The notes under the pieces: model-generated
Told to the model about the DNA's origin: nothing
The model's input: only the letters and a program-made list of their open reading frames with translations
Database searches by the model: none
Program-made: the position numbers and the translations under genes
Assembly (NCBI GenBank): GCA_951406725.2
Contig: OX597833.1
Location: forward strand, 16,864,001-16,928,000
Reading direction: 5' to 3'
DNA: 64,000 nucleotides
From: Octopus vulgaris
Lineage: Eukaryota
In this document: in pieces, positions 10,219-41,386 of the stretch
How the letters are laid out: every line of letters starts with the position of its first letter
How positions within the stretch are numbered: the stretch's first letter is position 1

Positions 10219-10668
10219 AGCGAGCTGAGCATAAGGTGGCGAGCTGAGCATAAGGTGGCGAGCTGGCAGAAACGTTAGCACGTCGGGCGAAATGCTTAGC
10301 GGTATTTCGTCTGCCGTTACGTTGTGAGCTCAAATTCCGCCGAGGTCGACTTTACCTTTCATCCTTTCGGGGTCGATAAATTAAGTACCAGTTACGCACT
10401 GGGGTCGATGTAATCGACTTAATACCTATGTCTGTCCTTGTTTGTCCCTTCTATGTTTAGCCCCTTGTGGGTAATAAAGAAATAGGTATTTCGTCTGCCG
10501 TTACGTTGTGAGCTCAACTTCCGCCGAGGTCGACTTTGCCTTTCATCCTTTCGGGGTCGATAAATTAAGTACCAGTTACGCACTGGGGTCGATGTAATCG
10601 ACTTAATACCTATGTCTGTCCTTGTTTGTCCCTTCTATGTTTAGCCCCTTGTGGGTAATAAAGAAATA
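10219..10668 (+). mobile_element. MetaSINE-type dimer nested in an older minus-strand MetaSINE
   Basis: Two near-identical 184-bp units; 15-bp TSD GGTATTTATTTAATC (10204-10218, 10669-10683). Confidence 0.9.
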
Positions 10669-11086
10669 GGTATTTATTTAATCGACCCGAAGAAGATGGA
10701 AGGCGAAGTCGACCGTGGCGGAATTTGAACTCAGAATGTAAACATGGACAAAATGCTTAGTGGCGTGCTAACGATTCCGACATCTCTCTGCCTTAATAAA
10801 TATTCTTCCGTGTTTAGGCACAAGACCTGGAATTTTGCGAGAGTAGGACGGCTGGACTATTACATTAGCCCCAAAGCTCAACTGACCTCGAAACGATGAC
10901 AGATAATGTCAACGTCGAGGGAATTTGAAAGTTAGAAAGTAAATAAAGACAAAATGTGGCTCAGCATTGGTCCAGCGAGCTAACGATTTTGCCAGATCGA
11001 CATTCGAATACTACGACTAAGAATAATAATGGCTTTAAATATCGGTACAAAGTCAGCGATTTCGGAGAAGGGGCTAAGTCGATTAC

Positions 11087-11239: not shown

Positions 11240-12117
11240 TTTCAAATGTTTGCCACAAGAGCAGGTTGGGGGAGGGGGTTAAGTCCATTACGTTCGACCC
11301 CAGTCCGTAACTGGTACTTATTTAATCGACCCCGTAAGGATGAAAGGCTAAGTCGACCTCGGCGGAATTTGAACTCACAACGTAACGGCAGACTGAATAG
11401 CTATTTCTTTACTGCCCACAAGGGGCTACACACAGAGAGGACAAACAAGGAGAGACAAATGGATTAAGTCGATTACATCGACCCCACTGCGTAACTGGTA
11501 CTTATTTAATCGACTCCGAAAGGATGAAAGGCTAAGTCAACCGCGACGGAATTTGAAATCACGACGTAACAGCAGACGAAATATCTATTTCTTTACTACC
11601 CACAGGGAGCTACACACAGAGGGGACAAACAAGGATAGACAGAGGGATTAAGTAGATTACATCGACCCTAGCGCGTAACTGGTACTTAATTTATCGACCC
11701 CGAAAGGATAAAAGGCTAAGTCGACCTCGGCGGAATTTGAACTCACAACGTAACGGCAGACGAAATACCGCCTATCATTTCGCCCGGCGTGCTAACGTTT
11801 CTGCCAGCTCGCATCATTATTATTATTATTATTATTAGTAGTAGTAGTAGTAGTAGTAGTAGCAGCAGCAGCAGCAATAATACTAATAATAATAAGAAGA
11901 AGAAGAATATTGATGATGATAATGCTTTCAAATTTTGACATAAGGCCAGTTCTTTTAGTGGGGAGAGAGTAGTCGATTACATCGAATTCAGTGTTCAAAT
12001 GGCACTTATTTTATCGACTACGAACGGATGAAAACGCAAGGTCGACCTTGGCAGAACTTGAACTCAGAACGTAAAGAGCCGGAAGAAATATCGCTAACGA
12101 TTCTGGCAGCTCGCCGC
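11240..12117 (-). mobile_element. MetaSINE-type trimer plus an older monomer
   Basis: Repeated ATCGACCCCGAAAGGATGAAAGGCTAAGTCGACC on the plus strand. Confidence 0.8.
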
Positions 12118-13980: not shown

Positions 13981-14565
13981 GAAGTGGCGTGGCTGTGTGG
14001 TAAGAAGGCGGTGAGCTGGCAGAAACGTTAGCACGCCGGGCGAAATGCTTAGCGGTATTTCGTCCGCCGCTACGTTGGGAGTTCAAATTCCGCCGAGGTC
14101 GACTTTGCCTTTCATTCTTTCGGAGTCGATAAATTAAGTACCAGTTACGCACTGAGGTCGATGTAATTGACTTAATCCGTTTGTATGTCCTTGTTTGTCC
14201 CCTCTGTGTTTAGCGCCTTGTAGGTAGTAAAGAAGAAATAGGTATTTCGTCTGCCGTTACGTTCTGAGTTCAAATTCCGCCGAGGTCGACTTTGCCTTTC
14301 ATCCTCTCGGGGTCGATAAATTAAGTACCAGTTATGCACTGGGGTCGAAGTAATCGACTTTATCCGTTTGTCTGTACTAGTTAGTCCCCTCTATGTTTAG
14401 CCCCTTGTGGGTAGTAAAGAAATAAGAAACCGGCTTCCCAACTACACGGCTCAGGGTTTAGTCTTACTGTGTGCACCTTGGGTAACTGTCTTCCACTTTA
14501 GTTTGGGGCCAACTAAATCCTTCTGAGTAGATTTGGTAGAACGAAACTGAAAGAAGCCTGTCGTA
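13981..14565 (+). mobile_element. SINE family C head interrupted by a MetaSINE dimer (14005-14424)
   Basis: GTGGCTGTGTGGTAAGAA | MetaSINE x2 | ...CTTCCCAACTAC...CACCTTGGGTAA. Confidence 0.8.
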
Positions 14566-19564: not shown

Positions 19565-20189
19565 TCTTTTCTACTATAGGTATAAGGTCTGAAATTTGGG
19601 TGAGGGGGTATGTTGATTATACATCGACCCCAGTACTCAATTGGTGCTTATTCTATCGATCCCGAAAGGATGTAAAGCAAAGTCGACCGTGGTGGAATTT
19701 GAACTCAGAATTTAATGATGAAATGATGAATGCCAATAAGTTTGTTTTTTTTGTCCGGCGAGTCAATCACTCTCCTAGCACGCCGCTTTAACAATAATAA
19801 TAATAATCATTTTTACTGGAGGCACAAGGCAACAAATTTGTGAGGAGGAGACTAGTCAATTACATCGACCTCAGTGATTCATCGACCCCGAAAGGATGAA
19901 AGGCAAAGTCGACCTTGGCGGAATTTGAACTCAGAACGTAAAGACAGACGAAATACCTATTTCTTTACTACCCACAAGGGACTAAACGCAGAGAGGACAA
20001 ACAAGGGCAGACAAACGGATTAAGTCGTTTACATAGACCCCAGTGCGTAACTGGTACCTATTTTATCGACCCCGAAAGGTTGAAAGGCTAAGTCGACCTT
20101 GGTGGAATTTAAACTCAGAACGTAACGGCAGTCGAATTACGGTTACGCATTTCGCCCGGCGTGCTAACGTTTCTACCAGCTCGCCGCCT

Positions 20190-20190
<1 letters not shown>
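19565..20190 (-). mobile_element. MetaSINE-type copies
   Basis: Meta domain on the minus strand three times. Further single copies at ~270-590(-), 9860-10035(-), 29882-30085(+), 35575-35775(-), 38150-38368(+), 54648-54878(+), 61211-61447(+). Confidence 0.8.
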
Positions 20191-20225
<35 letters not shown>

Positions 20226-20929
20226 AAATAATAATAATAATAATAATGATAGTAATAACAACAACAACAACAATATTAATATTTATAGAGCTGAAAATGA
20301 TAAATAATAATCTGAAAGATGGGTGAGATAATATTTTGTCGAGTTAAAATTAAATATAAAGTTATCATATTCGTTTCCGTATACGAGTTAATCAAAAATG
20401 GAGTATGGTTCTTTTTAATTTAATTAACAAAGACATGATTGTAATTGAAGAAAAAATAAAAAGAATTTTTGAATGCAGAATATCGAGTAACTGAAAGGAA
20501 ATATATGAAAATTGATCATGTAATGCATATCGATCTTTATTGATTGACTAATAAAATATTTTATTCAATCACGTTACAGCACAAGCGTAGAGCGTCGAAG
20601 TTGTTAAAAAATATATTTGGAAGCCCTTTCGTTCGAATTGGTCTGTGCTATAATATATTGGTTGCACCTACCCGTGTTGTCGAACTAGTAGATTGGATAA
20701 ATGACAGGTTTTTGACAATCTAAAACAGTCTGCAGGCACAAATAAATTCATTTCCATGCAACTGTTAGAAGTTATGTTCATTGATCATTTTTAATAGTTT
20801 TATGCGGTGGGTGGGCAATTACGCTCTTTTACACATACATTTTTGTTGTTGTAGTTATGAAGGATGCTAAAAACAGATATTCTAAGTTCTTCAATTCTAA
20901 TGTTGTTCATGTTGTTATTTGTTCCTTCT

Positions 20930-21665
20930 CGAGCCATTGCCTGCGACCCTGCTGGCCGGTTTCCCGAGTGAGAGAAAGTTGTGGCGAAAGAGTATTCATA
21001 AGTTCGCCATTAAACTCTGCCAGAGCCGCGTGGAGCTTAGGTGCTCAAAAACACATATCGCTCGGTCTGAGATTCAAACCCGTGAGCCCTCGATCGCGAG
21101 TCCGCTGCTCTAACCACTGAGAGTGTTAGTTATAGATATGTTTTCTTGTTTATCTTTTACTCGTTTCATCCATTGGACTGCGACCCTGCTGGGGCATCAC
21201 TGAGTGAGAGAAATTGTGGTGAAAGAGTCATCAGAAGTCCGCTATTAACTTCTGCCGGAGCCGCGTGGAACTTAGATGTTTCGCTCAAAAACACACATAT
21301 CCCGGCCTGAGATTCAAACCCGTGAGCCTTCGATCGCGAGTCCGCTGCTCTAACCACTGAGAGTGTTAGTTATAGATATGTTTTCTTGTTTATCTTTTAC
21401 TCGTTTCATCCATTGGACTGCGACCCTGCTGGGGCATCACTGAGTGAGAGAAATTGTGGTAAAAGAGTCATCAGAAGTCCGTTATTAACTTCGCTCAAAA
21501 ACACACATCGCCCGGTCTGAGATTCGAACCCGTGAGCCCTCGATCGCGAGTCCGCTGCTCTAACAATAGGGCCATGTGCCTCCACAGTGTTAGTTATAGA
21601 TATGTTTTATTGTTTATCTTTTACCCGTTTCATTCATTGGATTGCGACCCTGCTGGGGCACCACC
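20930..21665. repeat. Imperfect tandem triplication (~240-bp period) of a SINE A head / spacer / SINE C tail junction
   Basis: AGTGTTAGTTATAGATATG at ~21122, 21362 and 21586. Confidence 0.8.
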
Positions 21666-21789
21666 TTGAAGCGGTTAGTCAAACAAATCGATCTAACATG
21701 ACTTGTTTTTAGTGTGGTACTTATTCAATCAGGCTCTTTTGCTGAACCGCTAAGTTACAGTAAATAAACAAACCGGTGGGTGGGGAATC

Positions 21790-22290
21790 GTTTTCTATTG
21801 AAATTGCTCAAGCTTTTGGAATGTCATTCTCGCTCTATGTGGGCCGTGAATTATCCTGATGGAAGAACACTTTTCGTTTTGAATCCAAAGATGGTCGTTT
21901 TTCTTCTAGCGCAAGTGTCAATGAATGGTTGAATGACCAAATTCCAAGCTTCTCTGCTAGTTCCTCAACAGTTCCGACGGGATTTTGTTCCACCAGGGTT
22001 TGCAAGACGTCCTCGTCGAACTCTACACATCTTCCAGGTCAAAGCTCGCCTTCTGAGCTGTAGTTTCCGGCTCAGAATTTCTGCAACCACCACTGACACT
22101 AGCCTATGCTTATTGTCTGATCCCCATATACTGCATTAATATTCCTCGCACTTTCCGTTGTGTCATTTCCTTTATTGAGTTCATAAAGCAAAATATGCTA
22201 AATGTACTCCTTTGTCACTTCCATTATAGGTTTGAAAACATAACTGTTAAAATCGAACTGTACTCTTCAAAACTTGCACTAAGAATAAGT
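21790..22290 (-). pseudogene. Mariner transposase remnant
   Basis: Minus-strand fragments HILLYELNKGNDTTESARN (N-terminus) and VFFHQDNSRP (catalytic HDN motif). Confidence 0.7.
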
Positions 22291-22864
22291 AAAGGTAAAA
22301 TTACTACCTGCTTTTATAGTATGTTGATGCAAGTAGTTTATCCCGTCCCCCACCGACTGAAAGCCAGTGAACAGAAATTACGATGCCGGTTTGACTTTGA
22401 ATCTCTTTAACAATTCAAAATAATGAATTTAATTCCTCGTAATTCTACCTCAGTCCATCTAATTGTATTTATTTATCGCTACTTCCATTTTAAAGAAGCC
22501 TTTATGTTTTTGATATGTGCATTTTCGCTTTTTTCTTTCCCCATATCTTTTCCACGTTTCCATAAGTTGGACCTATATAACATTCTTCAATGCACTAAAA
22601 ATTATTTTCTCCTGAATATGCGTAACTGAAATTCAAGTGCGTCTAATATAACTGTTCGTTTTTTTGTTTTAGGTCATCAAATATGGAATTTTACTGTTCT
22701 AGAATGATATTCTATAATTTTTTAACGGAAGACTATTGGTTAATGACATTTCATATATTTTCGATGAAACTGATTCTGCATTTTAGCCGTGTTTGGGAAC
22801 TAACTGATTCCGTCATTGTTACTTCCAAGTAACCTCGCTTAAAACCTGTTTCTGTGCTTGTTGG

Positions 22865-22933
<69 letters not shown>

Positions 22934-23090
22934 ACACACACACATGTGTGTGTTTATGTTGGGATGTATACATGTGAAAGGCCAAACGGAAGGAAGCAGC
23001 AGTCTGCACAATTGATTGGAGTTACAAAGATATTTTAATAACAGTTTGACTCAGCTCCACATGACATAACTTGGAGTTGAGTCAAACCGT

Positions 23091-23157
<67 letters not shown>

Positions 23158-23208
23158 CTGTGTATGTGTGTGTATGTATGTATATATATGTATATATATA
23201 TCTATGTA

Positions 23209-23248
<40 letters not shown>

Positions 23249-23362
23249 TATGTATATATATGTATATATATATGTATATATGTATATATACATATATATA
23301 TATGTGTGTGTATGTGTGTGTGTATGTATATATATATCTATATATATATATCTATGTATATA

Positions 23363-23432
<70 letters not shown>

Positions 23433-23579
23433 GTATATGTATATATATGTATATATATATATGTATAGATATATGTATATGTGTGTGTGTGTGTGTATGT
23501 GTTTGTATGTATGTATATATATATGTATATATATATATGTATATATGTATATATATATATACATATATATGTATATATA

Positions 23580-23633
<54 letters not shown>

Positions 23634-23675
23634 CATATGTGTGTATGTATTAATATATATAGAGAGAGAGATAGG

Positions 23676-23765
<90 letters not shown>

Positions 23766-24531
23766 TTCGACGGGCACAGCACAATTTACGTCTACCAAAT
23801 TTTATTAACCAAGTACTGGTGAAGTAGAATCTTTGCTCGTACCACTTGCGCCGGGGGTCGTGCAGTGTATTCGAACCTGAATCCGCTTGGTTGTTGAGGG
23901 CGAACTTCATTTATTATACTACTCCGCCTTCATTATTTATAGAAATTGCTAGATAAAATGTCAGAATTAAAACAGCTATCTTGGCGGTGTTTCAGTATTT
24001 CGTTTAATAAGTAAGTTTGTGTCGCTATATATATAAAACAAGAAGCGATAAAAACTAGCTAGAACTAGCTTGCACAGATGTCTATGTGGAGTAGGAAGTT
24101 CGCTCCGTTATAACGTGGTTCCGGATTTGATCCTGTCGTGCATTACATTGTTCAGCAAGAGTCTTCAATCAGAGCCTCGGGTGGACAAATATCACTCGCA
24201 ATACAAACTGATAAAAGGAAATTGTTCTGGGGTCATTATAAACACTCCTTTTATTTCTTTTGACCATTAGACAAAATCGATCCCAAGACATACTTTTTTC
24301 TAAAGCCTGGTACAAATTCTATCGGGGTCTTTAACCGAGCAGCTAGGTTACGAGGAAGAATTAACAAACTAACCCCGACTATCAAACGGCATGGAGAGAC
24401 AAATACAAGAACAAATACATACATACATACATACATACATACGTACGTATGTATATGTGTATGAATATATATACATACACACATAGATACATATATATAT
24501 GTTTTGTATGTGTATATATATATATACACAC

Positions 24532-24592
<61 letters not shown>

Positions 24593-24593
<1 letters not shown>

Positions 24594-24630
24594 CTTTCTG
24601 TTGAAGAGCGTAGGCTCGAAACGTTAAAGA
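24593..24630 (+). ncRNA. Minimal hammerhead motif, A6U variant (element 24593-24730)
   Basis: Motif identical to 29139-29176; the element starts at stem I directly after (TA)n. Confidence 0.7.
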
Positions 24631-24737
24631 CTTGTTTCATTTATATTTCCTGAGCCCCATACTAATACAATTGTTTGTTTGTATTCCACCTGCCTTCGTC
24701 TTTTGTCTATTTTCATAAAGCTTCCCGTTATATATAT

Positions 24738-24973
24738 ATACAAAATTAAGAGGGAATTACCACTAAAGTGGACACCTAATATGCTAAACATAGACGCCAA
24801 ATCACCATTACCACGAAGAATGTGTCTTCAAGAAAAATATCAGCAAAACGCCAAAATGTAAAAATGTAAAAAATGTAAAAATGAGAACACATTCTTCGTG
24901 GTAATGGTGATTTGACGTCTATGTTTAGCATATTAGGTGTCCACTTTAGTGGTCATTCCTCTTAAATTTGTAT
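24738..24973. repeat. Long inverted repeat (~87-bp arms, 61-bp spacer)
   Basis: 24738-24825 is the reverse complement of 24887-24973 with few mismatches; embedded in (TA)n. Confidence 0.85.
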
Positions 24974-25096
24974 GTAACACAGTTTTTAGTCTTCGGATTT
25001 TTAAAAATATGGTAAGCCACTGGTTTTAATTGATTAATATCAGTTTCTACCCTCATTATTTTATGTATATGTATATATATATACATATATACATAT

Positions 25097-25156
<60 letters not shown>

Positions 25157-25329
25157 ATATATATATGTGTGTGTGTGTATGTATATATAAGCATATAAAA
25201 TCATTGTACAACCACCACCCGGATGTGACCCACCAAAATTTAACATCTCTATTAGCAGAATTTCCATTGAATACATTGAACATTTCCTTTATCTTGGTAG
25301 ACTCCTGCCTGTCCAATGTACACCATCAA

Positions 25330-25970
25330 AGAAAATAGAAAACATCATCTAAGCAGTACACTCAGCCTTTTCAAAGCTCTCCAATAGAGTCTTTGGGAGC
25401 AGAAGTCTTACTATGTAGGCGAAAATGATCGTGTACTATGCCTTAGTTGTGTCTACCCTGTTGTATGGATGTGAGACGCGGGCCCTGTACTGCCATGACC
25501 TGAAAAAAACTTGAACAATTCCTTGAAAAGTAACTCCAGTCAATTTTCAGCATAGAATGAGATTATGTTACCAATACTGATGTACTAAAGGATGCGGGAA
25601 TAATTAGCATGGAGGCGACAATCATTAAGTACTTCAGATGGGTAGGCCACGCTAATCATGCGGGCAAAATTAGGCTCCCAAAGATGTTCCTATTTGGAGT
25701 ACTGAACAATGGGAGACGCCCTCCTGAACAACCCCTGCGATGATACAAATATCTATAGAAGGAAACTCGGAAGAGTACTGTTATAGACCAGAATTTCCTG
25801 GGAAATGACACCCAACCAACGCACTCTTTGACGTAATTTAACTGAACCAAGAATATCCCGTTTTGAAGAAAACAGAACGGGTATCGGAATGAAAGACAGA
25901 GCAACCCAAACGTAGCCAACACCAACAGTCCAATACGATTCTTGCAATAGGGTGTTTAGAGCAATAATTG
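25330..25970 (+). pseudogene. RTE-clade LINE ORF2 C-terminal remnant
   Basis: SAFSKLSNRVFGSRSLT...VYYALVVSTLLYGCET and RWVGH...RLPKMFLFGVLNNGRRP, with stops and frameshifts. A smaller RTE-like piece lies at ~6590-6740. Confidence 0.75.
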
Positions 25971-26085
25971 GGGAAAAACTATAATTCCCTACAGTACAAA
26001 TGATATCTATCTCCACTTTGGACTGAAATGTGCCAAATACTCGGAAAAGAGTCTTTGCAGACGACGAAAGTCACGATAATTCGTG

Positions 26086-26116
<31 letters not shown>

Positions 26117-26226
26117 ATATATATATAATATAATATATAAAATATTTAAATATATTAATATTATATATATATATAATATAATTAATATATATATATATAT
26201 AATATAATATAATATATATATATATA

Positions 26227-26263
<37 letters not shown>

Positions 26264-26669
26264 ATATGTAATAACTATATATATTAATATATATATATAT
26301 ATATACATGCATATATATGCATATATATAAAAAAAAGGTTGAACACAATGAGAAACGAAGACATAAAAACAAAAACATAGAAAACGAACTTTTTTCGAAC
26401 AATGTAAAAAAACAAGCAGAGAAACGAGACATACGACATAAAGAATATTCCCCTTCTTCAGTTGTCCTTGTTTCGACTACTCCACGTTTCGAAGGCATCA
26501 GTACACATTAAGTACAGCGCATCACACAGCCACGCCTATCCCTACATTGCTTATGTATCGTGCCCTATATATATCACCCTATACAAATATCATATGCCCG
26601 ATTATGTTTACAACTGGCTGAGATCTTTTATTGAAATACGCCATCAGTTTTTTTTTCTTTTCTTTTAAA

Positions 26670-27420
26670 GCGTGGATGGTTTCTGGTTCTGATATGACTA
26701 TCATATTGTCATCTGGACAATCGCTTTCATGAATATGATCGAATACGGTTTTAATGACAATTTCGTGTCTCATTCAATGCAGACATTTTTGGACAGCCCT
26801 GATGCAGTGTATGCTATCTTCCACTCTCTTATGTTCTACTCTCTTGTATTTAGCATTTTCGATCGCAAACTTGAGTTCGAGAGGTTTCCTTATCTTCCTT
26901 GTCGATTAAATATTTACTATCTATTTCCCGTTCCTGGACAGCAAATGCGAAGTCTTCTAGATGACATGTGATGTATATATGTATCGTGTATCCATGCATA
27001 TCTCTGCTGGTAAGATTACTATTTCTATCCCAAGTTTCTGTTTAAGTAGATTAATTCGGTTAGCCTTGATGCATATGGAGCAATTGTGCTTTCAGATGAC
27101 CTATTCTAGAGTTCTTTACTTAATATCATCAATTTATTATTTTCGCTGTCGTATAACGCTTGTAATGTTTTCATTCTTGTCGTTGGCGTCCAGTAGGTGT
27201 TGTCTGAGTGACATGATGCAGCAATCATTGGCAGTCTGAAATGAATTATTCCCAATTATTCCCTTGCTCACATCTCTCCTTTTATCATAGATCCTATCAG
27301 TGTTTCTATTGATGTGAAGGCTTTTCACTCGTTGCTTGTTTCTTCGATATCCAAGTTCTGATATCCGAGTTGTGGATTTCTTCCAGTGTCCATTTTAGAG
27401 CAAGTATTAAAGGTTAGTAC
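26670..27420 (-). pseudogene. RLE-type (R4/Dong-like) non-LTR retrotransposon remnant
   Basis: Minus-strand fragments AFAVQEREIDSKY, GCPKMS...MRHEIVIKTVF (post-zinc-knuckle RH motif); heavily degraded. Confidence 0.5.
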
Positions 27421-27462
27421 GGGAACGTAAACACACCAACACCTTTTGTCAAGCGGTTTTGG

Positions 27463-27505
<43 letters not shown>

Positions 27506-28544
27506 ACATACATATGTGTGTGTGTGTGTGTTTTATGGAGCTTTGATTTTTATACTATCTGAAGTTTGCTGCATTAGTGTTTTTCTGCCCATCGCACAAA
27601 TCCAAGACAAGCAGAGTGTGTTTGTAGTTGTGTGGGGGAAAGCACAAGCTCAAATAAATCCATATATAATTGGTACTCCGTCCGTTACGATGACGACGAC
27701 GACCACGAGGAGCCCAGAAGATCCGATCAACGGAACATCCAGCTCGTGAAATTAATGTGCAAGTGGCTGAGCACTTTACAGATACGTAGTACACTTAACG
27801 TAGTTCTCAGGGAGATTCAGCGTGACACAGAGAGTGACAAAGCTGACCCCTTGAAATACAGGTACAACACATTTTTGCCAGCTGAGTGAGCTGAAGCAAC
27901 GTGAAATAAAGTGTCTTGCTCAAGGACACAACGCGTCGCCGGGAACTGAACTCGCGACCCCACGATGGTGAGCCGAACATCCGAACCACTAAGCCACGCC
28001 TCTTTATATGTGTGTGTGTTTACTTGTGTGTGCATTTATATATATCTATATATTTATCTCTCTGTTTATCTCCCTGGCTATCTATGAATGTATAGTTCTA
28101 CACAGAACTATCTTTTACGGTAGAAGACAACACTTGCACAAGGTGCCGCACCAAGGGAGTGAACCCAAAACCATACGTTTACAAGTCTGGATTCTTAACC
28201 ACATAACCATGCCTGCATCTATACGGAAAAGATGATGCTACATAGATGTTATTACAGGCATTCAAGGTTTCCGCGAAGCACAGCATTTGCTTATGCTGCC
28301 TTGAGCATGTCATCACCTCTTGCTCCTTATCACTCACTTTGTCATGCTTATTGTGAAACAGATTTCCACTTATCAAGTCAACAGCTTTACTTATGTGCAA
28401 GAGATGATAGCATACACCAGCAAACTGCTTGTTATTGATTTTGTTGTTGCTGTTGTTATTAGTGTTGTTGTTGCTTAATCTCATTCAGATCTCATTGTGC
28501 AAGTCTGTGAGCGAAGTCACAGCAGCTGCATTATCGCATCTTTT

Positions 28545-28601
<57 letters not shown>

Positions 28602-28691
28602 TATATATATGTGTGTGTGTGTGTGAGCGCGTGTATCGTTGGCGATTTTTTTTCTCCGTCTTCCCTTCCTTGGACTTTTCCTTTTTGCTAT

Positions 28692-28726
28692 ATTTCTGAC
28701 GAAGAGCTCCGCTCGAAACGTTAAAT
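28692..28726 (+). ncRNA. Minimal type I hammerhead ribozyme motif in a Penelope-like short element (28627-28830)
   Basis: ATTT-CTGACGA-A-GAGC(TCC)GCTC-GAAA-CG-TT-AAAT: stem I ATTT/AAAT, stem II GAGC/GCTC, palindromic stem III. Confidence 0.8.
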
Positions 28727-28827
28727 CCTCCTTCCTTCTTTCCTTCTTTCCTGAGCGTCCAATAAGACTATATTTGTTCCACGTCCTCGCGTTGTTGTGT
28801 TTTGTCTTTGTTCATTTTCGGATTAAC

Positions 28828-28893
<66 letters not shown>

Positions 28894-28917
28894 CTTTTCT
28901 ATTGCACTTTTTATAAT

Positions 28918-28962
28918 ATTTTTGATAAGGTTCGTTTTTTCAAGAACCGAAACATGTAAAAT
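28918..28962 (+). ncRNA. Minimal type I hammerhead motif, U3-A8 core variant
   Basis: ATTT-TTGATAA-GGTTC(10-nt loop)GAACC-GAAA-CATG-TA-AAAT: perfect stems I and II, palindromic CATG stem III, GUA cleavage triplet. Confidence 0.7.
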
Positions 28963-29138
28963 TCATAAGAAAATTAAAATTTATCTAATATAGTGGCGTT
29001 TTCAAACTTCTTTTTTACAAATATATACCCACTCGTATACGATCTACTCTTATTATAAATATATAGATCGCCATATTGATTCGCTAGCCTCTGCACGCAT
29101 TTTTTTCTCTCCTTCTTTCTGTGTTTCTTCTCTGTGTA

Positions 29139-29176
29139 TCTTTCTGTTGAAGAGCGTAGGCTCGAAACGTTAAAGA
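29139..29176 (+). ncRNA. Minimal type I hammerhead motif, CUGUUGA (A6U) variant, in element 29065-29306
   Basis: TCTTT-CTGTTGA-A-GAGC(GTAG)GCTC-GAAA-CG-TT-AAAGA. Confidence 0.7.
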
Positions 29177-29303
29177 CTTGTTTTATTTATATTCCTGAGC
29201 GCCATACTAATACAATTGTTTGTTTGTATTCCACCTGCCTTCGTCTTTTGTTTATTTCCGTAAACCTGCCTTCGTCTTTTGTCTATTTTCATAAAGCTTC
29301 CCG

Positions 29304-29357
<54 letters not shown>

Positions 29358-29547
29358 TCAAAAGACATACTAAGTATGTCTGCCTGCTAGATTAGTATGT
29401 CCTTTGATTAATTTTAATCCCTCGGCTATTTAATGCTATTTTTTTAGCCTGCTATCGCCTGTGTCATTGACTCTGTTATTATCACTTTTAAAATAGTTAC
29501 ATTGGATAATAATAGAATTAATGACACCTTCGTAAATTAATATATAT

Positions 29548-29617
<70 letters not shown>

Positions 29618-29780
29618 AGAATGGAAAGTTCTGTATATACGTGGGATAGGTATATAAGAAAGAAAAATCGTTTGATCGAGAAACCGGTAGTTATTTAATT
29701 TGTAATGATGTAATATGGCCCTAATATCACCATAAATTTTATTATACACACTTTCTGTGACTCTCACATTTCTTTTCTTT

Positions 29781-29881
<101 letters not shown>

Positions 29882-30140
29882 CTACGGTGAGCTGGCAAAA
29901 TCGTTAATAGAACCGACAAAATACCCGTAGTTCTTCTGGTTCTTTTCGTACTGAGTTCACATATCGTCGAGGTCGATTTGCCTTTCATCTTCCCGGGGTC
30001 GATAAAATAAGTACCTATGAAGGACTAGGATGGGTGTAATCCCCGCCCCTCAAACTAGCTGATCTTGTGCCAAAATTTGAAGGAATTTATACAGAACAAC
30101 ATTATCCGAGTGCTGGTATAATTCTTTCTATTATAGGCAC

Positions 30141-30688
30141 TGTTATGTCGCACGCCCGATGATTCTACTCAACTCGACTCTCCCGACTGCTTCTCAAATC
30201 TGTCCTTGACGTCCAGGCTTCTCCCTCTATATCTACGTATTGGGCTAGCCTACTTCATCGCCTGGGGGTGTCTGCTCAACACATCCCCCTTTTGAGTTTT
30301 TTTTAAAACTCGAATTTATCAATTTTATTTCCTCTGTGAGAAACTGGCATATCTTTTCCTCTTAGCGTTAATTTCCATCATTTCTGTAGGTCTTCTCTTC
30401 CTGTTCGACCTACGTATCGGTTCTGCTTTTGCTTGTGGTTCTGGGACCTCGAACACTTTTGCTTGTGGTTCTGGGACCCGGAACAAATCATACCATAAAT
30501 CCATTGGGATATTCCCGCGTGAGTTCAAATCTCATCCTATTCGTCACTGTTATGTCGCACGTTCGGGGATTCTACTTAACTCGACTCTTTCGACTGCTAC
30601 ACAGCTCTGTCCTTGACGTCTAGGCTTCTCCTTCTATATCTACGTGTTGGGCTAGCCTACTTCATCGTCTGGGGGCGTCCACACAACA
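30141..30688 (-). mobile_element. TRIM-like / internally deleted Ty3-gypsy LTR element
   Basis: Two 141-bp TG...CA LTRs (30141-30281, 30548-30688; 19 differences by hand count). 5-bp TSD GGCAC (30136-30140, 30689-30693). PPT AAAAGGGGGATG abuts the 3' LTR on minus. tRNA-Ser-derived PBS at 30497-30546. Residual integrase-tail-like peptide IRRSNRKRRP. Inserted into a MetaSINE tail. Confidence 0.9.
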
Positions 30689-30879
30689 GGCACAAAGCCT
30701 GAAATTTTGAGAGGAGGGGGCAAATCAAACACATCGACTCTGGTGCTTCACTGGTGATCTATTGACCTCAAGTGCATATAACGAAATGCTCAAAGCAGAA
30801 GTCAGTACAAAAAGCTTTCTGAAAATAATATGAACGAACACGACAAAGTTGTCATGTTTTCTACCCGCCTCTCTTCCAT

Positions 30880-30951
30880 TGACAACAAAACAATATTGAA
30901 TAAGGTTTTATGATATCGGTTTTATTGTAAAAATAAGTACAGAAATTTATT
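30880..30951 (-). terminator. Probable polyadenylation site of the RGK mRNA
   Basis: Two AATAAA on the minus strand (30951-30946, 30926-30921), preceded by a U-rich run and followed by GU-rich TTGTTTTGTTGTC. Marks the end of a long SINE-free stretch below the stop codon. Confidence 0.5.
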
Positions 30952-31775
30952 CAACAAAGTGGAAAAAAAAACAAAAAAAAAAACAATAAGTAGAATAACA
31001 TAGAGAAATGGTCGGAATTGCTGACATTCATGAATTCATTCTTGAAGACTGCCATACTAATATACATAAATATATATATACATATATGTATATATAAATA
31101 TATATGCCCCTCTGTATATACATTGATATGTATATTCAAACTCTCACACATTCACGCACAAACATTCACACTCAGATATTTATATGAATTTATCATAGAC
31201 AATATTAAATTATTATAGGCTTATATGATGCCTGTTATCATAGCATATATGCTTATTTGGACAAGTTACAAATAAATTCAATACTGAATCACGGCAAGAA
31301 TGTTTCATAATAGATGTTGAAAATTAAAAAAAAAAATCACCCAGTTATTCACACAGTCTTAACATTGTATATGTGTATATATATTTGTGTGTGTTTCTAG
31401 ATTGCTCTGCACGTATATGTTGTCAGCATGAGGGATTGCGTTTATGTCTGTGTGTCTGTGTATATATTTATGGATATAAATATGCTAGTTATATATAGAA
31501 AATATAGACACAAATATATATGTGTATATTGTATATATATATATTTTACCAAAAAAATTTTTTTTCAAAGTCTAAAAGTCACTTCTGACATATTATCATA
31601 TATTATGCATTCACGTTATAACAGTAAATATATCACGTGGATTTTTATAACCCACGTGATTCATGTGTCACAGCCCTTCACAACGGTTTGCTTCTTCAAA
31701 TACAAAAGAGGTATGATTTCTTTTCATTTTGATAGTATAGAATTTGATATCATGAAATGGATATATACATATACG

Positions 31776-31806
<31 letters not shown>

Positions 31807-34310
31807 GAATGTATGTATATGTATATATATATGTATGATATGAATTTTTTCTGAGATGTATGATGATAATAAATGCAGATTTTAATTTTACTTTTTACTT
31901 TTTTTCAATAAAAATTTTCACTAGGCACGAATAAGACAAATATATGGGCATGGAAATTGGGAAGATGTGGCTTTCATACTTTTCACTTGCTGAGTTTATA
32001 ATCAGTGTTTATACAATGAAATGGATACAACCGGAATTTTTTTTAAATCTTTGTTGTTTTATAATAAAACACTAATGTACCTACTCGAAAAGTCTGTATA
32101 CATACATACATACATACATACATCAATATATATATGTGTGTGTGTATGTATATATATATATAAACACACAATAACGCATATATATGAGTATGTATGTGTA
32201 TATGTGGATATTCATTCGCAATAATAATTGCTTAGAGAAGTGCAATATAAGGTTTCAATAATAATTTTGCAAGTATATTTTTACGTCAAAATTCCTATAG
32301 AATTTATTCAATTTTTCTTCTTCTGATTCTGTAATACAAGCTTTCGAAAACCGAAACACCTAACAGATGCATTACGTAAATCACATGATGTAAATCTAGT
32401 GTTTCGGTTATTACTGACGTTGTTATTAAAAAAATAATTGTAAATTAAAATATCAATTTCTTTATTTCTTCGGCAAAAGGCAAAAATTATTAGAGGAAAT
32501 GAATAAGGATAAAGGCCTCCTGTTATCTAGTTTCAGAGTATAGAAATACTATATTCCGTACGTCACGAGAATGACGAATGCGTTTAAGTCACAAAGCTTG
32601 ATATATTTTCTGTTGGGGAGGTAAATGAATGTTTTTATTGCGTTAGCATGGTTATAATTATGAACATTATGGTAATTATTAAATCCTTTAAATGAACAGT
32701 ATTATATATATAAGTGTGTGTTTGTGTGTGTGTATAAATATATATGTGTATATTTATAGATATATACGTGTATGTGTATGCATGCGTATATACATCGTAA
32801 TGAAGATTGTTATGATGGTTATGATAGCAGTAATTTAATATCGACGTATAAATGTAAATCCTTGAACTTATATGAAATGTTTCGACGGCATCGAAAGATT
32901 ATCGGGTTGGGTTAATAGTTTAGGTGATTATTATCTATATACGGAAGTAACTTCTTTGCTCTCCATTCTTAACTGAGTGCAAATCAGCTAAACATATTCT
33001 ACGGGTCAAGCTTACGGGGACTGTACTGCGTTTTATCTTAATTCACACTGCTGCATAAAATAAACAGCTTAGCAATAAAATGTAGTACATCTGAACTTGA
33101 GGCACAAAGAGGTATGCTTCAGTTAAAATAAGATGAACTGGTTTCAAAAACAAATTGGAAAAATGGAGCAAAACAAATGAACCATTAACATCAATCACCA
33201 GTCACATTTCGCCATCTTAAGGCAGCAATATTGGTTTCAGTTTTCCTTAACAGGAAATATTTCATACAACATATATATACATATGTATATATATGCACAA
33301 GCATAATTGTCAGCTCATGTTACTGGCAAATTCAAAATCTCTCAATGCCGCATAATGTGGCTGAAATGATTTTCTTCAGATATGGTTTACTTCTGAACCG
33401 GGATCACTGTACATGTTAAGTGTCCAAAGCAATTCATATACATATACATATATATACATATATATATGCATATGTATATATGTATGTATATATATATATA
33501 TATATACATATATATATACATACATGTAATATATACATGTTTGCGTGAGTATATAAATATACGTATGCATATGTACGCATAGTTACATATTTATACATAT
33601 GTTGCATGCGTATATAAATATATATATATATTACGTATCTCTATTTTTATATATAGGTACGTATACTGTGGCAACTTTGTATATATTTACATATATGGAT
33701 ATAAGTATATATAAGTATATATATACATACATATATACATATATTTTAATACATATATGTGTGAGTGTGTGTTTGTGTGTATATATATATTGATATATAT
33801 GTATATATATATTAGACACAAACACACACACATGCATATACGTACATATATATAGGCATGTATATATGTATGTAAACAAATGTATACACACATATACACA
33901 CATACATATATATATATAAACATTCTATGTTCATGTACGCTTGCCATTCAACCAATCTGAGGCTTTTGTATAAAAAAAAAAAAATATATGATATATTTAA
34001 ATTTTGAATATGAATTTTCAAAGCCTTGATTTTCTTTTTATATTTCCGGCTTCTCTGATGATATTCAATATTTAAAACAAAAATTATATTTTGATGGTTT
34101 AATGTGATGAAAAGATGCTTGATTGTCTTGCTAAATAAGATTTGGGTGTTTTCAAAAAAAAAAATTAGATTCTAAGTGCATAAATAAAATTAAGGTTTGA
34201 GTAAATATAAATGCACTCACACATAAAGATTTCGGTTTGGGTGTAAAAATACAAAATACACCCATTACAAGATTTGGTGCCTCATGGATAAAAAAAATGA
34301 ATTTAGTGTA

Positions 34311-34439
<129 letters not shown>

Positions 34440-34507
34440 TATATATAGATATATAGATATATATATGTATGTATGTATGTATGTATATATATGTATATAT
34501 ATATATT

Positions 34508-34540
<33 letters not shown>

Positions 34541-35154
34541 GTATGTGTGTGTATGTATGTACGTACGTACGTATATATATACATCTTATGAAAAAAAATT
34601 AAATGATGCAATTACTTTAATTTCTTAATCTTTAGATGTTTTCAATTCTTTATGAATTAGAAATGAATACACCACATTGCTGTATATGCGTGTGTGTGTA
34701 AGTGTATATATTTAGGTATGTACGTGTATCAGGAACCTTTGTGTTCTTCACAAAGTACCATGTTGCTGCCACTTAGATTTGTAATACAGCTTGTCAACTC
34801 TTTGATTTGATTACAGCTGTGTATTTTTACGTTTTATTTCCCTTGACACGAAGATCGACAAATGGACACTCTGACAACTTGAACAGTGTTATTCATACTA
34901 TCAATAAATATTTTAGCTTGGATCCTTCAAACCGAAGCAGTCCAGCTTATAATGATGATTAATGTTGAACAAAACAAAACAGCGGCCATTTTAAGATAAT
35001 GTGTGTTTTTACGATGAGTAACATAAGATCGTGAAATGATGTGATTTTATATGTATTTATATAATGTCAATGATATTTTATGTAGAGAATGTCATTTGCA
35101 TTGAAGCCTCTGCAACAAAGGAACATTTGAGGAAAAAAAAAAAGCTGGAAGTGT

Positions 35155-35417
35155 TTATAGATCAAACAGGTTATCACAAGACTTGACCTTCCTGGAGTTT
35201 TTTTTGAAAATCTTGCTGATCAGGGAGCGCCTGGTCTTCGTTCGCCTGTTCTTGTTCTTTTTGTTGGTGAGTGTTTGGCTGTTCTCTTGAACGTGAATGT
35301 TTAATTTCAATCGTATTTGGCTTAGGCTGCCGACCAAGAGATCGTCAATTTGATGGTTCAACGCCGCAGATGTTTCGATATATTTGCAGTCGTAGTTCAC
35401 AGCAATGCTTCGTGCTT
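35155..35417 (-). CDS. RGK-family GTPase, last coding exon (G5 ETSA, polybasic tail, C-7 motif)
   Basis: Acceptor TTTCTTTGTCATTGTAG|AA. Encodes (E)ARSIAVNYDCKYIETSAALNHQIDDLLVG...KIFKKNSRKVKSCDNLFDL-stop. The ending matches the RGK KSCxxLxxL signature with no CAAX box. Spliced CDS 631+264+263=1158 nt, 385 aa. Confidence 0.95.
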
Positions 35418-35802
35418 CTACAATGACAAAGAAAAGAAAAGGAAATTTTTTATAAAATTTATATATTTTAGATGTTTTCAAGGAAATTTTGTGAATTAGA
35501 AATTATAAGGAAGTTTTTAAAGGCTAAGACGAAAAATAATAATAGAATTAAGACGAAAAAAAAATTATAACAGTTTCAAACTTCGGCACAATGTCAGCAA
35601 TTCCGGGAATGGGAGTAAATCGATTATATCGATCCCAGTGCTCAACTGGTACTTATTCTATCGATTCCGAAAGGATGTAAGGCAAAAAACGACAGCGGCG
35701 ACGCTTTGAGCTCAGAACATAAAGACAGATGACATACCACTAAGCATTTTGCACGGCGCACTAACAATTCTGTCCTCATACTACTACTACTACTACTACT
35801 AC

Positions 35803-35851
<49 letters not shown>

Positions 35852-36394
35852 CACACCAACAACGTCAATATACATGAAGCTGAAGGTTGTGGTGATGATA
35901 AATGTTATAACATAATATAGAATTACTACAAAAAAAAATTATTGCCAAGGTAAAAAAAAAAGTCATGGTAAACACACTTGTAGTAAATACCTGAAGCGCC
36001 ATGAACACATATTCACCTGTATTTTTTTTGTTGTTGTTGTTGATAAAGGTCCCCCCCACTTTCCTCCCCACTTCCCTCTTCATCTTTCTATTTTTATCTT
36101 CTACTCAGGCAACAACTATGTGAACTGACGACATGGATTACATTCTAGGAATACATCTACACCTGTATGTACAAGTGTGTGTATAAATGTATGTGTGTAT
36201 GCGTGTATGTGTGCAGGTATATATGTTTGTGTGTGTGTGCGTGGAAGCATGGATTTTGTGTATGTAAGTGTGTGTATATATTTAAGCACGTATCTTTAGG
36301 AGTACTTACTAACATGTATAAGCGTAGCATACATGGTATGTATGCTTGTATGTAGACAGGTCTGTTATGTGTAAAATTATTCTTATATATGTAT

Positions 36395-36448
<54 letters not shown>

Positions 36449-36555
36449 GATATACATGCATAAACACACACATACACATATACATATATATTACATATAT
36501 GATATATAAATATGTATGTATATATAGTATATATATGATATATAAATATATATAT

Positions 36556-36616
<61 letters not shown>

Positions 36617-37343
36617 ATGTAAATATGCAATGTATGAATGCAATGTGTGTAATAACGTGATAAAGAACAGTTTTTGAGAGTTGAGTCTATCTTTAGTCAT
36701 GTCTTGACTACTCGCTGGCTCAACAGTACTTCGCTGTGAGTGGTCGGTCGATTACTCTCCAAGAAATCCTACTCTTGCTACTACCCAACCACGCCATTAG
36801 GGTGTCTGTTGCCAGAGTTATTCGCTTCTCACTCTTTACTAAAGAACTTTATTCTCCATAAAATCTATTTTTAATCTTTCAAGCAGGAGGCTGTTACGTG
36901 GTATGACTTTGCTCTCTTCAGCATTCAACTATGAATCATTGAATCACCAAACACTGCACAGACAATCAGCGCTACCTACATGAAGAGTGAGAGTGTAATG
37001 TATGTGTGTGTGTGTGTGTGTGCGAGTATGTGCACGTGTGCGCACATATGTGTGCGTGTGTGTGTGTTTATGTATATAAATCTTCTCTGGGTATTAAATT
37101 TGTTTAACAAGAAAAGATAATCATAACTGCTTATGTATACAGCTTGACCTTGTATAAATTTAAGCTTCAATATTTAAATCTCTTTAAAAAAATATCATTA
37201 GGTTTCCGCGGTAGAATTACCACAATAAACGACTTGGACATTTTTAAAGATTCTTTGTGAGTCAAACGTAGTTGAATAAAACTATCAGATATACCTATGA
37301 TATATTTTGACGGAGATGAAAAAGATTAATTGTAATATACATA

Positions 37344-37379
<36 letters not shown>

Positions 37380-38381
37380 AACAAAATCTAGCGAGTAAAT
37401 TTAGGGATTTACATAGATGACGGACTAATCCAATTCTGGTGATAAGATGGCCACCAAATAGATAAGTTTAGAACGGCACAATGAAAACGTTCAAAAATTT
37501 AAGCCTAACAATTAATGTCATTCCATTAGCTTAAGTAAATATTTAGATATAAATATTAAGATAAATTCTATTAAATGCAAAAAATATAATATATTTACAA
37601 TGAGCTCTTATAATATATTCACAGATGCTTTTCAACCATACAAACTTCTACCGTTGTATGAACGCACAAACCATATATTTAGTAAGGGTGCGCAGTCTCG
37701 TGCATGTGAATTTGCAGACGTTGATGCAACATAATGTGTGGTTGACTCATACATGTTTTGTGGTTTTTCAAAGTAGTTTATGGTATTTATGATTTGGAGC
37801 GAAGTATTTTAGTGGTAATTTGAAAAGGTATTTATTTCAGTCCCTTCAGAATACAAACTAATACGAGAATGTAAGGAGACACTGCTTTTCCGCAACAACA
37901 GACAGGTGGGGATGATAAATTCAGTCTTCAAAGAGGAAGATTTACACTAAGATATTTCCTTAGAGATATGCTTCCTGTATTCTTTTTTAGAGTCAAATTC
38001 TTCAGATCTCCTCATGATACTTAAGATGCTAAACCCTAGTAAAGATGTCTCATAGCAAAATCTAAATTTGGAAATAAAAAACATATTTACGCGTTCTCCA
38101 TTTAAAATCATTAAAGAAATTATAATAATTTTTTTTTTTTTTTCTTTTTTAAGGTGGCAATCTGGTAGAATCGTTAACACGCCGAGCAAAAGGCTTAGCA
38201 ATGTTTCATTGTTCTTAACATTCTTAGTTCAATTACCACCGAGGTCAACTTCCTCTTTCATACACTCGGGGGCAATAAAATAAGTAATAATTGAAGGCTG
38301 GGGTCGATGCAATCGACTTGGCCCGCCCCCCCAAAAAAATTGCTGGCCTTGTGCCGAAATTTGAAGTTATCATTATTATTA

Positions 38382-38484
<103 letters not shown>

Positions 38485-38535
38485 CTCATTAACATTTACG
38501 ATTAAAAGGCGAAAGATAATGATTTTATAACTTAC

Positions 38536-38799
38536 CATCACTGCTAACTTCCCGTTTTCTGACTAGGTCAATTTTATTGGCAACCAAAATAACTGCCCGG
38601 TCACTACCCATGTCTTGTCTGAGTAAGTGTAGGATATCAATGGCGGATTTGTATGAGGAGCGATCAGTTATGGAATACACAACCAAATAACCATCGAAGT
38701 TCATGTTTTCCAAGTAATTCTCATCAAAACCATCGGTGAATTCCATGGTGGATTCTTCTCCGTCCAATAACACGGATACGGTGTTTTCCCAATCGGCTT
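38536..38799 (-). CDS. RGK-family GTPase, coding exon 2 (G3 region, G4 NKID)
   Basis: Acceptor TTGTTGCAG|AA and donor GAT G|GTAAGT; 264 nt, phase 1-1. Encodes (E)ADWENTVSVLLDGEESTMEFTDGFDE...YLVVYSITDRSSY...AVILVANKIDLVRKREVS, typical of RGK G domains. Confidence 0.95.
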
Positions 38800-39005
38800 C
38801 TGCAACAACGATGAAATATTACATTTAGAATAATGCATTGAAAAATTAAAAGAAATAAGTATATCGGTAAAATAAGGGCCTGTATGCATTTGTTGTTGTT
38901 GTTGTGTATGTGTATGTGTGAGTGTGTGCGTGTGTGTGTGTAAATGTGCTTTTTCCCAAACTATCTGCTCCTTCTTCCCTTTCCTCTTCTCTGGACTTTT
39001 TCCTC

Positions 39006-39038
39006 GATCCGACGAAGAGCCATGCTCGAAACGTCGTT
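39006..39038 (+). ncRNA. Degenerate hammerhead motif in RGK intron 1, antisense to the gene
   Basis: CCGACGA-A-GAGC(CAT)GCTC-GAAA-CG-TC; U4C change and weak stem I. Diverged member of the 13.1/28.7 kb family. Confidence 0.5.
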
Positions 39039-39166
39039 TTTACTCTTATTTTTCCATCTAAAACATTTATTGAGTGTTAATCTAATACATTCAGGTTGCA
39101 CATCCAGTTGACATTTACTTTTGTCGTTTTATTGTTTTTTATTCATGGATTGCCGATATCTAAATA

Positions 39167-39213
<47 letters not shown>

Positions 39214-41386
39214 ATACATATATATATATGGATCTATGGATGCACGTATGTATATATGTGTGTGTATATATGTGACTGCTAAATATGTTATTTAACACTT
39301 CATTGTTCATTGATTCTTATTAGAGATCTTTAAAAAAAACAATCAATCATCAGATTCTAAAAACTAGACCGATGTTTCAAGAGAGTGCCATAATTTAAGT
39401 GAATTTGCAGGACCTTACGAATGATTTATTTCATAAATATATTATCATTTCATGAGAATTCATATATATATATATATATATATATATACTTCCGTGTTTT
39501 ATTGTTGGTGCTGTTATTTAGCGCTCTGTCAACTGGATACGTAACAGGTTGTTCATGCTTTTACCGCCGTCTATTTCTGTGATCTGAGAGTTGCCGTCAG
39601 TTACTACTACTCCTACATACTACTGTCGCCTTCAATATCTCATCTAACACTCCTCTTCATTCATACAGTCAACTGTACATATCTTTGCTTCTGCAAATGC
39701 ACATGTCTGTACACATTCATCGTCGTCAATGTAATAACGAGAGATTATACTACTGATGCATCACGCCGATAGACATCTTCGATTACAGATATAAAAAGTT
39801 TCTCTGTACGCTGACGTTATCAGCCAATCGGACACACACACATATATATATATCGCATTACTACACATAAATGCCTTACACTATGAGGAACTCTTAAACT
39901 AAAAACTACCGTAATAAATAATTATTATGATAGCTTTGATTTTAAGGGTCCCTGATAGCGTGAGGCATTTACGTTTAGTAATGTCCTTAATATAAATAAA
40001 TATATTTAAAGGGAATAATTATGACTTTGTTAGAAATTGGCGCGACTGTTACACAAATAGTATCAATCGTAGTAGTAGTGACTGCACAAGCCACAAACAA
40101 ACTACATAAACGAATCAACAAAATCGTCAACCAAAGAATATTTAAATGCGCATATAAACACATATACACACACACATATACATTTATCAAATATATAAAC
40201 GTGTGTGTGCACGTGTGTGTGTTTTGAGCAGTTGGCTGCAGCGTACAAAACATCTGGTTGAAGTGAGTTTTGCTACGTATATCTTCTGCTACGAGAAAGG
40301 CGTGGGTTAGTGCAGTGATAGTATCTGCATGAATCTAGCGCGATCAATATCGATCGCAATAGGAAGTCCGTCAGCCGGTTGTAATGGGGAAAACCTCACT
40401 GATTCATTAACAAACTACAACAACAGAGAAGCGATGGTAGCTTCGTGGCTTCAGGCGATGGTGTCTTGTTGCTGTTAATGATGCTGTGGTGTTTCTCCAC
40501 ATCGTGTCCCTATTGCTAGATGTGGCGGTGGCGGGTCTTTCGCGGTGTTAAAAGCGATTTTAGTGAGGAGAGAGTTTTATAAGCTTATTATGGTTATGGT
40601 GTAGTTTGCTTTTGCCAGTGGTATGACTAGAGTGTGTGCTACTCAGAGTAGTCCTTCAACCTATATAGACTTTTACAGGAGACCTTAAAATGCCGCCCTT
40701 CCATAAAAGCGTTGCTCGAGGTACACCGCATCCTCACCCCTTTTGTAGTTTCAAAGGTGGTGGTCATGGTGTGGATAAATTGGAAGCTGATAAAAAACAT
40801 AGTGTTGTAATAGTTGTTTGGCCCTAGGTCTGCCTTGCCTGAGGACACCTATGACCAAAAACATGATCAGTCACCCTTATACAGTCATTGTGTATCTAGG
40901 AGTACTATATTAATCCTAGACGTTCGGGTATAACACAAGGACGATTTGGCTGCGATTTCGCGCAGATTGTGCGACCACGTAGAGGCACCCTCCTTAACAC
41001 ATGAAAGTTAGAGTCGTTGGTGATGGTCGTTGTGGAGGCCTTCGAAGGAATCTGGCGGGGGATCTATGACGTAATAGCGCAGGCGACAGAGATGACGTGT
41101 CGGTGAGATTCCACTCTATGCTAAAAATACTTTATAGTACGGGGGAGACACTCATCGCTGATACTAAATATAGCAATCGTTCTTCTGACAACAAACAACT
41201 CGAGTCTACCTGCGTGTGTAAGTGTGTTTGCATGTGTGTATGTTCGTGTGTGAGTGTACCTTTGTATGTGCATGAGTATGTGAATGTGGTTGGATGAGTG
41301 TATGTATGTGTATGTGTGTGTATATATGTGCGTTTCAAGTTGGAATCATACTATTTCAAACTATGCATTGATCGAGTTGTGCGTGC

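Follow-up and report, generated by a model that had tools for sequence, protein, structure and literature searches.

The window analysed here is a stretch of 64,000 nucleotides from Octopus vulgaris (contig OX597833.1, forward strand). On its minus strand lies a Ras-family exon at 38537–38800 (PF00071, E 4.7e-9), and a last exon at about 35158–35418, also on the minus strand, ends in KSCDNLFDL-stop, a C-terminal tail that we take to be of the RGK type. The approximately 4 kb after this RGK-like stop (~30750–35150) are AT-rich and largely single-copy, consistent with a long 3′ UTR, and parts of 31114–33400 are overlapped by contigs from a run that may be RNA. Beyond this region lies a (TA)n tract occupied by short repeats of Penelope-like elements (PLEs) and hammerhead ribozyme motifs, in which A, B and C each sit in their own repeat between (TA)n runs:

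28549–28621: (TA)n/(TG)n microsatellite forming the left side of the target tract (TRF 28549–28610, period 2)
28622–28829, plus strand: unit A, short 3′-end (pLTR-like) copy of a Penelope-like family, the oldest of the three
28692–28726, plus strand: hammerhead A, CUGACGA core at 28696, ACGU palindrome, GUU triplet
28828–28890: (TA)n separating A and B (TRF)
28889–29068, plus strand: unit B, a second and young Penelope-like family represented by a 5′-truncated 3′ end
28918–28962, plus strand: hammerhead B, UUGAUAA core at 28922 (U3-A8 variant), ACAUGU palindrome, GUA triplet
29066–29305, plus strand: unit C, a third Penelope-like family, also young, represented by a short 3′-end (pLTR-like) copy
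29139–29176, plus strand: hammerhead C, CUGUUGA core at 29144 (A6U), ACGU palindrome, GUU triplet
29353–29540, plus strand: unit D, fourth repeat of the tract, without a hammerhead in the window copy
29614–29783, plus strand: unit E, Penelope-like end, 5′-truncated and carrying an inverted 5′ piece of 53 nt
29783–29878: (TA)n, closing the target tract on the right (TRF)

A descriptor scan of both strands found three minimal type I hammerhead folds on the plus strand, with cores at 28696, 28922 and 29144. Every stem pair in them is Watson-Crick: stem II and stem I have 4 and 4 bp in A, 5 and 4 bp in B, and 4 and 5 bp in C, and the predicted cuts fall 3′ of 28722, 28958 and 29171, that is, 236 nt (A to B) and 213 nt (B to C) apart. 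The core boxes (C/U3-UGA-N-G/A8-A9 and GAAA) and an NUH triplet are present; A is canonical, and B and C are not, B by virtue of its U3-A8 pair and C through a deviation at position 6 (A6U). Stems I and II are paired and stem III is palindromic, and stem II varies among the families while its pairing is kept. The whole window gave six descriptor hits against a mean of 0.18 and a maximum of 2 in 100 block-shuffled windows. The three hammerhead motifs are real, and the first-pass annotation, which had reported three complete folds with palindromic stem III on the plus strand, had the cores, the predicted cuts and the 236/213-nt spacing right. Rfam gave no hammerhead family in 28630–29300, where all six matches were TA-repeat noise, and none among the 150 matches listed of 249 in 20000–40000.

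A fourth, 3′-half remnant had also been noticed, and indeed GAAACCGGTA sits at 29680; it belongs to unit E, a PLE end truncated through its hammerhead core so that the 5′ half is gone, and other copies of E keep TTGAC upstream (the 5′ core half) and join a B-like PLE frame. The first 39 nt of unit D are an inverted copy of D's own sequence. Repeat D (29353–29540 and loci L292–L305) combines a GACATAC-TTA-GTATGTC hairpin with an inverted 5′ duplication and ends 3′ in TA; neither a hammerhead nor a linked frame was found in the window copy or at those loci, and D may be a PLE end lacking a hammerhead, or a MITE.

Pattern counts in the 2.8-Gb genome gave 3,033 exact copies of the A core, 305 of the 3′ half of the B motif and 6,181 of the C core, at least 9,500 exact motif copies in total, spread evenly over both strands, with reversed-pattern controls of 0. 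Among the 40 candidates scored in each search, the nearest other copy is 93% identical to unit A and 100% identical to unit B, and the nearest other copies of unit C are 99–100% identical. As judged from these sequences, A, B and C are separate families of different age and not one element. Copies of all three have a fixed 3′ end followed by (TA)n, and their 5′ ends vary. Twenty-six of 30 sampled A copies begin 73–98 nt upstream of the core, like the A of the window, and 13 of 30 C copies, chosen by their 3′ end, begin 103–115 nt upstream of the cut site, where the C of the window begins at 106 nt. Because units of ~200–240 nt are the usual form of A and C, the 220-nt spacing of the hammerheads follows from unit length. 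Relative to the cut site, the C copies start upstream (23/30), at the site (1/30) or beyond it (6/30), and one of 30 B copies starts at its cut site. A genomic footprint of cleaved templates was considered and rejected, since 58 and 67 genome-wide (TA)n junctions fell at two control positions and fewer, 31, at the C site.

The 5′ ends of A and C cluster genome-wide ~80 nt upstream of the core and ~105–110 nt upstream of the cut site (L186–L245, L306–L335). This cluster may be the transcription start of the pLTR, in which case the copies would be SINE-like solo pLTRs made from uncleaved RNA. In thousands of family C copies the core reads U and not A at position 6 (CUGUUGA, CUGUCGA, CUGUAGA), a natural variant with stem pairing preserved; the cleavage triplet is GUA in 19 and GUU in 11 of 31 C sequences, and our search of the literature on hammerhead A6U cores turned up nothing relevant. 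Four family B copies (L034, L043, L048, L057) have tandem partial repeats of ~91 nt ending within stem II, plus inverted 5′ copies. Another motif (L161; block ~24139–24163, G000:C8), related to the E-type family, is of the U3-A8 type with an ACCGGT palindrome, and scores on both strands at one place.

The tie to PLEs that had been suspected from the motifs is borne out by longer copies of A, B and C, which continue upstream on the same strand into frames with the PLE RT-thumb, CX4CXXC and GIY-YIG motifs. A frame with an RT followed by a C-terminal GIY-YIG was thereby found upstream for all three families; the window copies carry no frame. For C, YIDD, thumb, CX4CXXC and YIG motifs occur in a 570-aa frame at one locus (L376), and this frame stops 27 nt upstream of a unit 98.8% identical to the C of the window. 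Its Pfam match to GIY-YIG is weak (E 0.039), an earlier Pfam search of locus frames gave no match for the C-family frame, and Atlas gives the frame 0.96 for clusters whose members include HTH_animal, GIY-YIG and RVT_1; a copy related to the C family matched RVT_1 at E 0.0057, below the cut-off. PLE frames also lie upstream of the C unit at L063, L067, L079, L085, L089 and other loci. For B, such frames were seen upstream of the unit at six loci (L036, L038, L042, L047, L048, L054), and those at L038 and L042 match PF01541 above the cut-off (E 6.4e-7). For A, broken frames at L066, L109 and L113 are 48–67% identical to those of C, and the sequence is shared down to the unit. The CX4CXXC linker precedes GIY-YIG in each family (L109 for A, L042 for B, L376 for C). 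The hallmarks of EN+ PLEs that we found are a fixed 3′ end, 5′ truncation, inverted 5′ copies and microsatellite targets; no full-length element or pair of flanking pLTRs was present in six extended loci, all of which are 5′-truncated, and no target-site duplication was recovered. By these testable sequence features the three hammerheads belong with the minimal hammerheads of EN+ PLE pLTRs.

The closest known system is the minimal type I hammerheads in PLE pLTRs, described by Cervera and De la Pena (2014, PMC4209133). There, tandems are 3 kb apart and close pairs lie on opposite strands, whereas here three unrelated families are stacked on one strand; the extra nucleotide that follows position 9 there is missing from B, and no A6U core like that of C appears in the parts consulted. 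The account of Neptune/Nematis-type EN+ PLEs in PMC8557442 describes a C-terminal GIY-YIG, a CX2-5CxxC linker, inverted 5′ copies and a (TA)n bias. The octopus families resemble them in having GIY-YIG after CX4CXXC in A, B and C, (TA)n targets, inverted 5′-truncated copies beside the unit and a hammerhead near the 3′ end; Neptune/Nematis is thus a putative clade, assigned by motif only.

Recurrence of the three-motif order had been set beforehand as a test, and the arrangement failed it. The A-B-C order was found at none of 87 other loci (29 per family), and among the best 40 of 2,275 candidates the B-C junction was fully covered by the window alone, the other 39 matches ending at the end of B. 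We also scanned the neighbours of 167 copy-centred loci, retained after removal of 12 self or duplicate loci and of L001, of which 148 had the central motif. A same-strand hammerhead neighbour within 500 nt was present at 5 of these 148 sampled copies (1 intact, 4 decayed), 192–388 nt away, and the pairs were in mixed family order (A-C, C-A, A-A′, C′-C). An opposite-strand neighbour within 500 nt was present at 10 of 148, five of them resembling same-family inverted copies and five coming from other families; the apparent excess of inverted neighbours was gone (5 same-strand vs 5 opposite) once the same-family inverted copies were removed. One locus (L016) is an independent A-(TA)n-C stack with its own junction, another (L239) has three motifs in 576 nt on mixed strands, and a third (L200) has three same-strand motifs in 1.2 kb. 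As background, an arbitrary sample of 600 kb contained nine motifs (4 intact), and shuffles of it contained 0–1. From the pair rate and 9,500–30,000 motifs, 3–9 same-strand triples per genome are expected (interval 0.3–46) when decayed cores are counted, and from the intact-only pair rate 0.1–0.3 all-intact triples (interval up to 3–10), estimates that take their pair rates from the 148 sampled loci and assume independence, and so undercount long tracts. The all-intact triple of the window stands at the rare end of this expectation.

With copies of each family scattered in their hundreds to thousands, an ordinary pile-up most likely explains the cluster, and not an array built for cutting RNA. 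We are quite confident that it arose passively, by independent insertions of PLE ends into one (TA)n tract, and that it has no joint function, a reading that the first-pass annotation had kept as a fallback and that the copy numbers and the non-recurrence of the order now support. We infer the targeting mechanism, the insertion order and the silence of the ribozymes as follows. The element endonuclease would nick (TA)n; reverse transcription would set out from one fixed point a short way downstream of the hammerhead, to halt early or at the RNA 5′ end; and each insertion would leave a unit of ~180–240 nt with a hammerhead and fresh (TA)n, which would serve as the next insertion target. A, 7% from its nearest copy, likely inserted first, and B and C (0–1%) later. 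The pair rate of 5/148 is enough for a few triples per genome, and two more repeats (D and E) share the tract, one of them truncated through its core. Several observations weigh against the pile-up: all five units have the same orientation (1 in 16 by chance), an intact triple lies at the rare end, the window is ~10 times richer in motifs than the arbitrary sample, neither a full-length element nor a target-site duplication was recovered, the Pfam support for the C frame is weak, and no empty site turned up at an orthologous locus.

Whether the motifs would cleave depends on their pairing. In a double-hammerhead dimer stem III is paired and the stem I strands are swapped as well. The pairing of B's ACAUGU with ACGU is predicted at −2.1 kcal/mol, against −5.5 for ACGU pairing, and because its palindrome is mismatched to ACGU, B is left without a partner at the locus. 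An A-C duplex is predicted to be as stable as A-A or C-C (−5.5 kcal/mol), and a heterodimer of these two motifs had indeed been proposed on the ground of their common palindrome. The palindrome is there, but the fold is poor: each swapped stem I would consist of only 3 A-U pairs, and forcing the heterodimer puts 28600–29320 at +26.3 kcal/mol relative to its minimum fold. In folding of the same segment the monomer stems cost 4–8 kcal/mol and the stem I probability is at most 0.03 in the ensemble, all values being nearest-neighbour predictions that leave out tertiary and protein effects. The GUU cleavage triplet of A and C and the A6U core of C are both unfavourable. From an A-C dimer a single piece of 449 nt would be released, in place of 236 + 213 nt. 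Release of 236- and 213-nt pieces is therefore unlikely in these models, given that B fits neither neighbour and the A-C heterodimer folds poorly, and the claim that one transcript is cut into retrozyme-sized circles is not supported for motifs of unrelated families, one of them partnerless. Among the unstranded contigs of four runs none listed bridges a unit junction, and repeat copies from elsewhere swamp A, B and C.

In PMC4209133, which also describes the U3-A8 core covariation seen in B, cleavage was absent from a lone minimal PLE hammerhead and weak in dimers or trimers. In the anole PLE study (PMC11167929), the hammerhead was cut only with protein, core mutants were still inserted in vitro so that the hammerhead was dispensable for insertion, and reverse transcription started internally with no reads ending at the cleavage site. 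At this locus the hammerheads are probably near-silent, since the minimal PLE type depends on a matching partner or on protein of the element.

One alternative accepts the passive origin and adds accidental activity, in which a plus-strand transcript of the tract is cut by the A-C heterodimer (449 nt) or with the help of PLE protein, with incidental linear or circular RNA, or weaker antisense read-through at the neighbouring gene, as the outcome. Only plus-strand RNA could be cut, since what that gene itself makes by read-through carries the inactive complement of the hammerheads. The intact stems, the ACGU palindrome common to A and C with its duplex of −5.5 kcal/mol and the protein-assisted cleavage demonstrated in PMC11167929 speak for such activity; the three A-U pairs of the cross stems I, the +26.3 kcal/mol of the heterodimer, the stem I probabilities of at most 0.03, and the unfavourable GUU at both sites and A6U in C speak against it, and no promoter or plus-strand RNA was identified. 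We regard it as improbable. It would be a decidedly long shot to suppose that TA-tract stacking makes ~160–500 heterologous head-to-tail pairs, that those sharing ACGU excise chimeric circRNAs through a heterodimer or PLE protein, and that this locus is a newborn retrozyme and an accidental antisense terminator at the RGK-like gene.

We give very little credence to the view that A-B-C is a composite non-autonomous element or retrozyme, moving or expressed as a unit via 236- and 213-nt circles. As in the animal non-LTR retrozymes (PMC7229834; bioRxiv 10.64898/2026.07.22.740005), type I hammerheads lie ~220 nt apart on one strand at low GC, and the spacing falls inside the ~170–400 nt range of animal retrozyme RNAs given in PMC7229834. 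Retrozymes as described there are tandem repeats of one monomer, have mostly canonical hammerheads and are expressed as circles, whereas A-B-C is heterologous, minimal, split by (TA)n and without block amplification. Non-LTR retrozyme identity was rejected for want of its defining feature: TRF found no tandem array of one hammerhead-bearing monomer in the tract. The order and the junction did not recur in the samples, the units differ in age (93% vs 99–100%), the hammerheads are minimal ones as in PLEs and not of the canonical kind found in retrozymes, and the −2.1 kcal/mol of B suits neither neighbour. Hardly tenable, too, is a selected cis-regulatory array that shields the 3′ end of the RGK-like gene from convergent transcription, an antisense-RNA trap suggested by the position on the opposite strand ~2 kb beyond the AT-rich region 3′ of the last coding exon, since the units are unrelated families of different age in a non-recurring order, B and C are 99–100% identical to dispersed copies and too young to show conservation, same-family motifs lie on both strands throughout the window, and the gene's own read-through RNA is the inactive reverse complement.

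On the passive pile-up reading, the known link between PLEs and minimal hammerheads gains three families from the locus, or five if D and E are counted. Retrozyme-like spacing can come from insertion pile-up alone, which calls for caution in screens that call tandem hammerheads retrozymes. If the heterodimer cleaves, it would offer a testable route from PLE ends to retrozymes, whose origin has so far been argued from phylogeny. An octopus repeat annotation (PMC13282606) lists Penelope families and leaves ribozymes unmentioned in its available part, and among the papers listed on hammerhead ribozymes and octopus none, judged by title and abstract opening, deals with such motifs in that taxon. 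We found no literature report of heterologous hammerhead stacks, and supplements or subscription papers may list these families; among the literature matches listed, none reports a hammerhead heterodimer.

Elsewhere in the window, further intact copies of the A and C hammerheads are at 24598 (plus strand), 13146 (minus) and 59614 (minus), which makes six intact motifs in 64 kb against 4 in the arbitrary 600 kb, a local richness of about tenfold. A decayed hammerhead with a C-C-G-A-C-G-A core lies at 39009 on the plus strand, upstream of the Ras-family exon and on the strand opposite the gene, and is probably intronic. Short tandem arrays with units of 184–187 nt and 240 nt, presumably SINE-like, occupy 10301–10675, 11275–11767, 14054–14421 and 20934–21492.
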